From assembly GCA_028820405.1 (NCBI GenBank), contig JAPPJI010000021.1:2770-66769 (forward strand): a stretch of DNA of 64,000 nt, written 5' to 3'. This document shows positions 60,509-62,846 of the stretch, piece by piece; position 1 is the stretch's first letter, and every line of letters starts with the position of its first letter. The notes beneath the pieces are model-generated. The model searched no databases, had not been told where the DNA came from, and was given only the letters and a program-made list of their open reading frames with translations. This DNA comes from Candidatus Kaiserbacteria bacterium. GTDB lineage: Bacteria; Patescibacteriota; Minisyncoccia; Phycocordibacterales; JABAAK01. The position numbers and the translations under genes are program-made.

Positions 60509-62665
60509 CTACCCGTCCCACCGACCTTCTTTTACCAATTTTTTCAACTGCCGAACACCTGCTTCTCCCGACTCAGTTATACCAGATCGCTGCAACTCAC
60601 TCGGCACCGTTTTCTGCTCCATAAGGGTTATTACATACCGATGTAAATCCATCGTCGCTTCATCACCAAAGAGATCACCCGTTTTCCTAATATCCCGATC
60701 AAATACCCGACGGAACCGCCTTGAAAGATACCGCTCCGTGTCTGCAAGACTGGAAAATGAATAGATATCATCCCCCCGATCCTTCAACGCCTCAAAGAGG
60801 TCGGATGCTTCTTTTCGCGAAGAAAATGCAATGTTTGAGACGTAGTCTACCACACCCTGCACCTCACCTGCTGCAATAACTTTGTGAGCGGTTTCTACGT
60901 GATCGATTCCTTCAAATGATGACAGATTCCGCATCACAGCCCACCCTTCTTTTTCTTGTATGAGCCGTTCAGCCAATGCGACATGATCAACACCTTCAAG
61001 TAGTGAGAGGTGTTCGGCAATCTCAGCGGTCCTGCCGACCCTCAGTGCCCTATCTATAATTGCGTCACTGTCAAGATGCGTAAACGCACTGCGATGCTCC
61101 TCAAGATACCAAAGACCGCAAAACTCAACGAACGAAAGAATAACCTCTTGAGGATCCATGCCATCGAGATCGAGCATGTATTCAACAACCGCCTTGGCTT
61201 GACCGTCTTTCATGAGCTCAGCAGCATACTGCATGCGATCAATTTGAAATCCTTTGATGTGCTTTGCAACATGATCACCCAGATCATGCTGCAAGAGACG
61301 CCATGCAATATTTTTATGGTCGGCAGCAATAAATCGCTGTATGTTTTCGGCAACACGATTGCCGTACCCTGCGGTAATCAATGTGTTAGCCGTGTCCGCA
61401 TTGAGGTCATCAAATCTCTCCATATGCTCGGCGATCACGCGCTCCCGATCATCTCGTGCTAACCCGCGTGCAACGTCATTACTTAAACCAGAGAAGTGTG
61501 TTATGTACTCAGCGAGAGATCTTCCCTGACCTTTCTCAAGAAGCATGAGAGCAACGTCCGTATGATCCACCCCCTTAAAACTCGGAAAGAATTCAGCAAC
61601 AGACTGTGCATCCATTCCGCCTTTGTCCATAAGTGCACGGACAACGGTATCGTGAGAAACAGCATCAAATTTTGAAATATGCGGAACAATACGCCACCCG
61701 GATCCTTTTTGTATGAGGATGTCCACCACTTTCTGCTGATCAACCGCAAGACGCTTCAGGTATTGAGGGATGACGGCACTATCGACCTTGTACACCAGTT
61801 TCAAAAATATGTTTTCCGGGTCAACATCAAACTGATCAGCGTACGTGACAACACTCTCACTTCCGTACGACCCCTGCTGCAAAAGATCATCTATAACTGA
61901 TTCGTGATCAACACCGTGCATTTTTGAAAGATGTTTTGCAACGGATTCACCCTGCTGATTTTGTATGAGGCTTCGAACAAGCACTCTTTGATCAATGGTG
62001 AAGTTTTGTACAAACAATGCAACAACATCTCCCTTCCCTCGTGCAATAAACTCTTGTGCGAGACGATCATGGTCAAGGTTGTTAAAGTTTGGAAGATGTT
62101 TTGCAAGTGATTCAAGTGAACCGGCAGCCAGTAATCGATCCGCAACCGCTTTGTGATCAATATTGGACATTTCCGGAAGATGTTTTGCAACCGCCTCACC
62201 TTCCCCAACGTTAATCAGTTGATAGACAACAAACCTATCAAGACCTTCAAAATCAAATGCGGCTATGTTTTCGGCAACGAGAGATCCTTCGCCGGAGTCA
62301 ATAATCTCATATGCAATCCACGAATGGTTAAGATGAAAATTAGTAAGATGTTCAATCACGACGCTTCCTTCGCCGGACTGAATAAACAGAGATGCTGTCT
62401 CAACATGGTCAATGTCCGGAAATTGGCTAAGATGCCGGGCGATAAGCGGTGCTTTCCCTTGTTCTATTGCAAAGCGAATTGCCCCGGAAATATCTTGCTC
62501 ACGTTGCAAGGATTCAAGCATCTCCTCGTCGGTTCCCTGCTCAAGCACTGATGCAAGATCGTTCTTTGGCGCCTCTTGCTCTTTTCTTTTCCCCCGCCCC
62601 AAGGTAAACATCATTCGCTTCTTCATGTAATCAGTATGGCACGAAAACAGCACGGACACTTGCAT
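60509..62665 (-). CDS. 718-aa tandem-repeat (alpha-solenoid-like) protein of unknown function
   Basis: About 18 copies of a ~34-aa unit with consensus xxHLxxFxGxDHxxVAxxLIxxGxGxxVxE (e.g. AKHLPEMSNIDHKAVADRLLAAGSLESL, AKHLSKMHGVDHESVIDDLLQQGSYGSE). The repetition is also visible at the DNA level (atgttttgcaac...). Confidence 0.6.
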   Translation of the reverse strand: MQVSVLFSCHTDYMKKRMMFTLGRGKRKEQEAPKNDLASVLEQGTDEEMLESLQREQDISGAIRFAIEQGKAPLIARHLSQFPDIDHVETASLFIQSGEGSVVIEHLTNFHLNHSWIAYEIIDSGEGSLVAENIAAFDFEGLDRFVVYQLINVGEGEAVAKHLPEMSNIDHKAVADRLLAAGSLESLAKHLPNFNNLDHDRLAQEFIARGKGDVVALFVQNFTIDQRVLVRSLIQNQQGESVAKHLSKMHGVDHESVIDDLLQQGSYGSESVVTYADQFDVDPENIFLKLVYKVDSAVIPQYLKRLAVDQQKVVDILIQKGSGWRIVPHISKFDAVSHDTVVRALMDKGGMDAQSVAEFFPSFKGVDHTDVALMLLEKGQGRSLAEYITHFSGLSNDVARGLARDDRERVIAEHMERFDDLNADTANTLITAGYGNRVAENIQRFIAADHKNIAWRLLQHDLGDHVAKHIKGFQIDRMQYAAELMKDGQAKAVVEYMLDLDGMDPQEVILSFVEFCGLWYLEEHRSAFTHLDSDAIIDRALRVGRTAEIAEHLSLLEGVDHVALAERLIQEKEGWAVMRNLSSFEGIDHVETAHKVIAAGEVQGVVDYVSNIAFSSRKEASDLFEALKDRGDDIYSFSSLADTERYLSRRFRRVFDRDIRKTGDLFGDEATMDLHRYVITLMEQKTVPSELQRSGITESGEAGVRQLKKLVKEGRWDG

Positions 62666-62677
62666 GCAAAAAGAAAA

Positions 62678-62696
62678 CCTGGGACAGTGTCCCAGG
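62678..62696 (-). terminator. perfect hairpin (CCTGGGAC-agt-GTCCCAGG) followed by a T-run on the minus strand. Intrinsic terminator-like.
   Basis: Seen in the sequence. Minus-strand context ...CCUGGGACACUGUCCCAGGUUUUCUUUUUGCAUGCA, only ~13 nt upstream of the annotated start of the repeat protein. Confidence 0.45.
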
Positions 62697-62816
62697 TCTT
62701 TCTATGTAATCAGAGGAGAAATACTTGTACAAATTCTTCTTCATCAAACAGGTATTGCATACGCCTCACCGTGTCGGCAAAGACCTTAATTATCACAACA
62801 ACATGCATGAAAAAAT

Positions 62817-62840
62817 GCCTGGGACAAACGTGCCCCAGGC
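62817..62840 (-). terminator. hairpin (GCCTGGGGCACgtttGTCCCAGGC on the minus strand) followed by a T-run. Likely terminator of the upstream membrane-protein gene.
   Basis: Seen in the sequence. Minus-strand ...GCCUGGGGCACGUUUGUCCCAGGCAUUUUUUCAUGCAUG. It shares the CCTGGGAC core and the flanking GCATGCA with the hairpin at 62678. Confidence 0.45.
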
Positions 62841-62846
62841 ATAGAA

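Follow-up and report, generated by a model that had tools for sequence, protein, structure and literature searches.

A Candidatus Kaiserbacteria gene encodes a diverged, array-only member of a 28-residue HEAT-like repeat family, a candidate binding scaffold of the Patescibacteria

Introduction

The Patescibacteria account for a large share of bacterial diversity and live mostly as epibionts, and many of their proteins are unannotated. Among the described systems closest to the protein analyzed here are the PBS-lyase HEAT-like repeats, together with the alphaRep scaffolds that derive from them by design (YibA 1oyz, MpeQ 7mc4, bGFP-A 4xl5). HEAT repeats proper, as in the PP2A A subunit, TOG domains, importin-beta and CAND1, are built from units of 37-47 aa, compared to 28 aa in the protein described below. 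In ankyrin repeats, the His of the T-P-L-H motif starts the first helix of each unit and takes part in inter-repeat hydrogen bonds, a role that is structural and not ligand-binding.

Here we analyze a repeat protein encoded in a 64,000-nucleotide stretch of a Candidatus Kaiserbacteria assembly (hereafter the window, to which all positions refer). Our best reading, with a probability of about 0.6, is that this protein belongs to an undescribed family of short HEAT-like repeats, as a diverged member consisting of the array only, and acts as a binding scaffold.

Results

The longest reading of the gene is a minus-strand open reading frame (ORF) of 718 aa at 60509..62665, with its stop codon at 60509-60511, as the initial sequence-only reading of this DNA had reported. 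NCBI annotates the same gene in a Candidatus Kaiserbacteria MAG as a 705-aa hypothetical protein that starts at Met14 (62624..62626, minus strand, as placed by the NCBI product length) and is identical to our translation from Met14 on. Met14 is the probable true start of this reading, since a terminator-like palindromic hairpin directly upstream of the ORF (62674..62700, minus strand) ends 9 nt upstream of the first ATG (62665) and makes that ATG an unlikely start codon. The same CCTGGG..CCCAGG stem is found in a second terminator-like hairpin (62815..62842, minus strand), which follows the upstream membrane-protein gene. The protein opens with a non-repeat leader (aa 1-47; 62525..62665, minus strand) that is basic and then acidic in translation, in which reading of the sequence revealed no signal peptide, hydrophobic signal or transmembrane segment, and whose first 34 residues have a pLDDT below 50 in the single-sequence AF2 prediction. 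A TrwB/VirD4-like coupling ATPase is encoded two genes downstream in the window.

The leader is followed by a repeat array spanning aa 48-635 (60761..62524, minus strand), composed of a degenerate N-terminal unit (R0, aa 48-75) and 20 units of 27-30 aa each (R1-R20, aa 76-635). The BLOSUM62 autocorrelation of the protein is highest at a lag of 28 residues (z=8.8), with further peaks at 56, 84, 112 and 140, and a unit hidden Markov model built from homologues only scores the protein at 180.6 bits, compared to at most 9.6 bits for 200 shuffled sequences. The repetitiveness is therefore real and well beyond chance. Its anatomy departs from that first proposed, which envisaged approximately 18 units of approximately 34 aa: the period is 28 aa, which is also the number of characters in the consensus string originally given. 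Likewise, the strict periodicity claimed for the His and Asp-His residues was overstated, the Asp-His pair being present in 8 of the 20 units. In the alignment, Asp occupies the first position of this pair in 15 units and His the second in 10, and the His of the A-x-H-L segment is also found in 10. Mean pairwise identity among units is 22%, and the core positions Ala1, Leu4, Phe7, Ala16, Leu19, Ile20 and Val28 are maintained across all 20 of them. The periodicity said to be visible in the DNA is detectable as in-frame autocorrelation at a lag of 84 nt (z=4.0), but it is weak, and Tandem Repeats Finder (TRF) reports nothing in the gene.

The repeat, although unrecognised, is not unique, as a profile of the protein's own repeats matches 853 protein clusters (representatives at 50% identity) at E<=1e-3, of which 514 match at E<=1e-10 and 183 at E<=1e-30, some of them scoring as high as the Kaiserbacteria protein itself. 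The family consensus, A-x-N-L-E-K-F-x-G-L-D-H-x-E-I-A-x-K-L-I-E-x-G-x-G-x-x-V, is much more regular than the Kaiserbacteria units, and 28 residues is the commonest unit spacing (558 cases), followed by 27 (141 cases). Profile matches in both directions and the shared 28-residue spacing place the protein within this family. A word-index homology search returned only the protein itself or fragments of 47-72 aa, and it was the exhaustive profile search that brought the family to light. In relatives the units are near-identical, and TRF finds 84-nt arrays in two of them (loci L051 and L014) and none in the Kaiserbacteria gene. A search of genomic loci with a seven-sequence family alignment identified 48 loci carrying the motif, most of them titled as Patescibacteria (including Doudna-, Dojka-, Komeili-, Buchanan-, Falkow-, Yonath-, Magasanik- and Saccharibacteria, SR1 and Parcubacteria), the lineage to which Ca. 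Kaiserbacteria, the source of the window, also belongs. The family is thus essentially restricted to the Patescibacteria (CPR). Searches of phages and plasmids yielded no family match, and a literature search found no description of a 28-residue repeat of this kind.

The view that the repeats do not match the TPR, HEAT, ankyrin or Sel1 consensus was borne out by Pfam searches of the protein and its homologues. Even at E<=10, Pfam lists no HEAT, HEAT_2, HEAT_EZ, HEAT_PBS, TPR, Sel1, Ank or Arm family for the protein, nor does any HEAT-type family appear for 15 homologues of much greater regularity at E<=1 or 0.01. TPR, Sel1, ankyrin and armadillo give no Pfam match above noise in the protein or its homologues, and their unit lengths (34, 36-44, 33 and 42 aa, respectively) differ from the 28 aa found here. 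None of the NCBIfam, PADLOC, PHROG or PDB-sequence models matches the repeats, and none of these profile searches resolved them cleanly into HEAT, TPR or PBS lyase. In scans of the protein and 15-20 homologues against Pfam, NCBIfam, PADLOC and PHROGs, Sec7, DUF2336, RecX_HTH1, Hairy_orange, GIPC1_GH2, Sigma70_r4_2 and HHH_3 appeared below threshold and with no significant stretch, and were set aside as summed repeat noise. PDB profile searches with the repeat and with three full-length architecture alignments returned nothing beyond a marginal match to the AIM2 pyrin domain, limited to a single hairpin (E=7.8e-4), which we treat as chance or analogy.

Units R1-R8 (aa 76-299; 61769..62440, minus strand), the most canonical stretch of the array, are modelled as a HEAT-like solenoid, and the units are modelled confidently by AF2; for the whole protein, single-sequence AF2 prediction reaches a pLDDT of 63 and its Foldseek matches are meaningless (TM<0.25). 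Each modelled unit consists of two antiparallel helices, one of them kinked, stacked into an α-solenoid, which is the HEAT-type fold. In each predicted unit, a 10-residue helix 1 (positions 12-21) leads through a tight x-G-x turn (positions 22-24) into helix 2, which comprises positions 25-28 and continues in the following unit with positions 1-2 and 4-6, kinked at position 3, and the unit is closed by a 5-residue loop whose Phe7 packs into the core. In Foldseek searches with the modelled repeats, TM-scores did not exceed 0.39 and no hit reached E<=1e-3, which indicates that the overall superhelix differs from solved HEAT examples. The suggestion of a possibly new α-solenoid thus holds for the sequence family but not for the architecture: given the HEAT-like fold, this is a new sequence family inside a known structural class. 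With 28 residues, its unit ranks among the shortest two-helix solenoid units in nature.

The sequence-only reading had also raised the possibility of a metal-binding repeat. On such a reading, metal ions along the solenoid would be coordinated by the His and Asp-His residues that recur from unit to unit. His12 (77%) and Asp/Asn11 (96%) are indeed among the best-conserved polar positions of the family, His also occupies position 3 in 17% of family units, and the Kaiserbacteria protein carries 20 such His residues in register. An invariant ligand in every unit is nevertheless missing, as half of the Kaiserbacteria units lack His12 (present in 10/20) and still more lack the Asp-His pair (present in 8/20). 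In the family alignment (A7), the gap of the common 27-residue units (141 cases against 558 at 28) falls in the His column or beside it, and other units substitute His12 by Tyr, Gln or Arg. Furthermore, there is no Cys, no H-x-H, no second ligand shell and no Cys/His clustering, and equivalent residues of neighbouring solenoid units usually lie approximately 9-10 Å from each other, a distance too great for one ion to be shared. In the AF2 model, Asp11-His12 sits at the N-terminus of helix 1, a typical capping position. We regard metal binding as highly unlikely and favor a structural role for the Asp-His, Asn and Gly residues, in which Asp11-His12 would cap helix 1, Asn/His3 would lie at the kink, and Gly23 and Gly25 in the turn, the conserved polar residues thereby capping helices, forming turns and linking the units through a ladder of hydrogen bonds instead of acting as metal ligands.

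The arrays are strongly acidic, with a median pI of 5.2 among 141 arrays, 84% of them below pI 6, and a net charge of about -33 for the Kaiserbacteria array. Within single proteins, the units vary most, as measured by entropy, at positions 26, 2, 24 and 22, and in the family positions 1, 4, 7, 16, 20 and 28 are nearly fixed. Variability focused on 3-4 positions around the hairpin turn is reminiscent of the RVD loops of TALE proteins, and would suit a modular nucleic-acid reader of the TALE, PUF or PPR type recognizing one base per unit through hypervariable residues. One homologue also reaches a summed HHH_3 score of 25.1 bits, close to the 27-bit cut-off, but no individual stretch is significant; HHH_5 (E=0.005) is likewise sub-threshold in one homologue, and no helix-hairpin-helix match was obtained for the Kaiserbacteria protein. 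The acidity of the arrays argues against such a reader, as do the lack of any Pfam nucleic-acid-binding repeat at threshold and of an outward Arg/Lys/aromatic ladder, with the exception of Lys6 and Lys18, which are offset by Glu5, Glu14 and Glu21. With acidic arrays and a dispensable His, metal binding and nucleic-acid binding are both unlikely, and we hold a nucleic-acid reader to be quite improbable.

Beyond the array, the protein ends in a non-repeat helical tail (aa 636-718; 60512..60760, minus strand), with a long helix predicted by AF2 at aa 640-683. In 150 family members examined for fusions, C-terminal modules of type A (31 members), B (31), D (8), E (6) and F (3) and an N-terminal module (26) were found, of which only B and D are related to each other according to hhalign. 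The terminal modules thus comprise at least five types with no relation to one another (A, B/D, E, F and N), unannotated in Pfam, NCBIfam, PADLOC, PHROGs and PDB, and each carries invariant Cys, His, Asp or Asn residues. Within the Kaiserbacteria tail, aa 647-713 (60527..60727, minus strand) match positions 87-152 of the 594-position type A module model, with the tail scoring 23.5 bits compared to at most 3.7 bits for 200 shuffled sequences. No piece of the remaining module (approximately 440 positions) occurs elsewhere in the window, and with only positions 87-152 present, roughly the first 65 residues of the module, the protein is an array-only variant.

This truncation could also mean that the gene is a degenerating type A copy without remaining function. 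Besides the approximately 440 missing C-terminal positions, its units are far more divergent (22% identity) than the near-identical units of its relatives, and it is the only sequence in its 90% cluster. A stop-free reading frame of 2.1 kb has nevertheless been preserved, the core positions are retained in all 20 units and the units are confidently modelled, and the degeneracy of the units points to an old array whose fold is kept by purifying selection and not to recent decay. Although we find a functionless remnant unlikely, units so much more degenerate than those of relatives suggest that the protein may be decaying or may have taken on a new role.

No conserved gene neighbourhood was found across the 48 loci, and no pathway is supported. 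The distribution and architecture of the family nonetheless call to mind a host-interaction effector, secreted or injected by an epibiotic CPR cell, in which the array would target a host component, the terminal modules would be the payload and export would go through the neighbouring type-IV-like machinery. The restriction of the family to host-dependent Patescibacteria, the presence of several paralogues per genome and a polymorphic architecture with at least five unrelated modules bearing invariant Cys/His/Asp/Asn residues are compatible with this scenario, as are the TrwB/VirD4-like ATPase near the Kaiserbacteria gene and the location of one relative in an apparent insertion at the 3' end of ychF. 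On the other hand, no signal peptide or recognisable secretion signal is present, the VirD4-like gene is not a shared neighbour in the 48 other loci, where neighbourhoods are mostly housekeeping, and no immunity-like small gene lies consistently downstream. Furthermore, no family member turned up on phages or plasmids, and the Kaiserbacteria protein itself has no payload module. Taken together, these data make an effector role rather improbable.

Discussion

The explanation that best joins these observations, to which the probability of about 0.6 applies, is that of a cytoplasmic, strongly acidic α-solenoid of 20-21 tandem 28-residue units, belonging to a Patescibacteria family in which the array would serve as an elongated binding platform. 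The residues that differ most from unit to unit lie near the hairpin turn (positions 22, 24, 26 and 2), and most relatives join the array to a globular, possibly enzymatic module of one of at least five unrelated types. The Kaiserbacteria protein has lost the globular portion of its type A module, leaving the array-only variant. The fold class and the pattern of variability suggest the platform function, and the ligand would most likely be a protein or peptide. The placement of variable and conserved residues on the surface is deduced from secondary-structure register only, and the conservation of Asn3, Lys6, Asp11, His12, Glu14, Lys18 and Glu21 could reflect a repetitive ligand instead of purely structural roles.

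A bolder and doubtful extension of the binding platform is that the 28-residue arrays form a Patescibacteria-specific programmable recognition system, with one target element per unit. If so, the 3-4 residues that are hypervariable near the G-x-G turn would read a repetitive or extended target of the host or of the cell itself, the array would direct the attached Cys-containing modules, as uncharacterised enzymes, to that target, and array-only proteins would act as competitors or regulators. A modular recognition code of this kind would be new, and would come from the bacterial radiation that is least understood.

Defining the family would provide an annotation for hundreds of large CPR proteins currently labelled hypothetical, and would indicate candidate host-interaction or regulatory machinery as well as a compact natural scaffold for repeat-protein engineering. 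The message of the Kaiserbacteria gene alone is more modest, that of a diverged, truncated family member with a putative function.

With respect to known systems, HEAT repeats have no counterpart of the G-L-D-H and G-x-G signature motifs of the family. The arrays resemble those of TALE, PUF and PPR proteins in being long series of near-identical two- or three-helix units that vary at a few positions near a turn, but the latter have units of 33-36 aa as opposed to 28, the arrays of this family are acidic, no profile match connects them, and in structure the family is less similar to them than to HEAT proteins. By analogy only, the His of G-L-D-H opens the first helix of the unit as the ankyrin His does, and we propose that it plays the same structural role.

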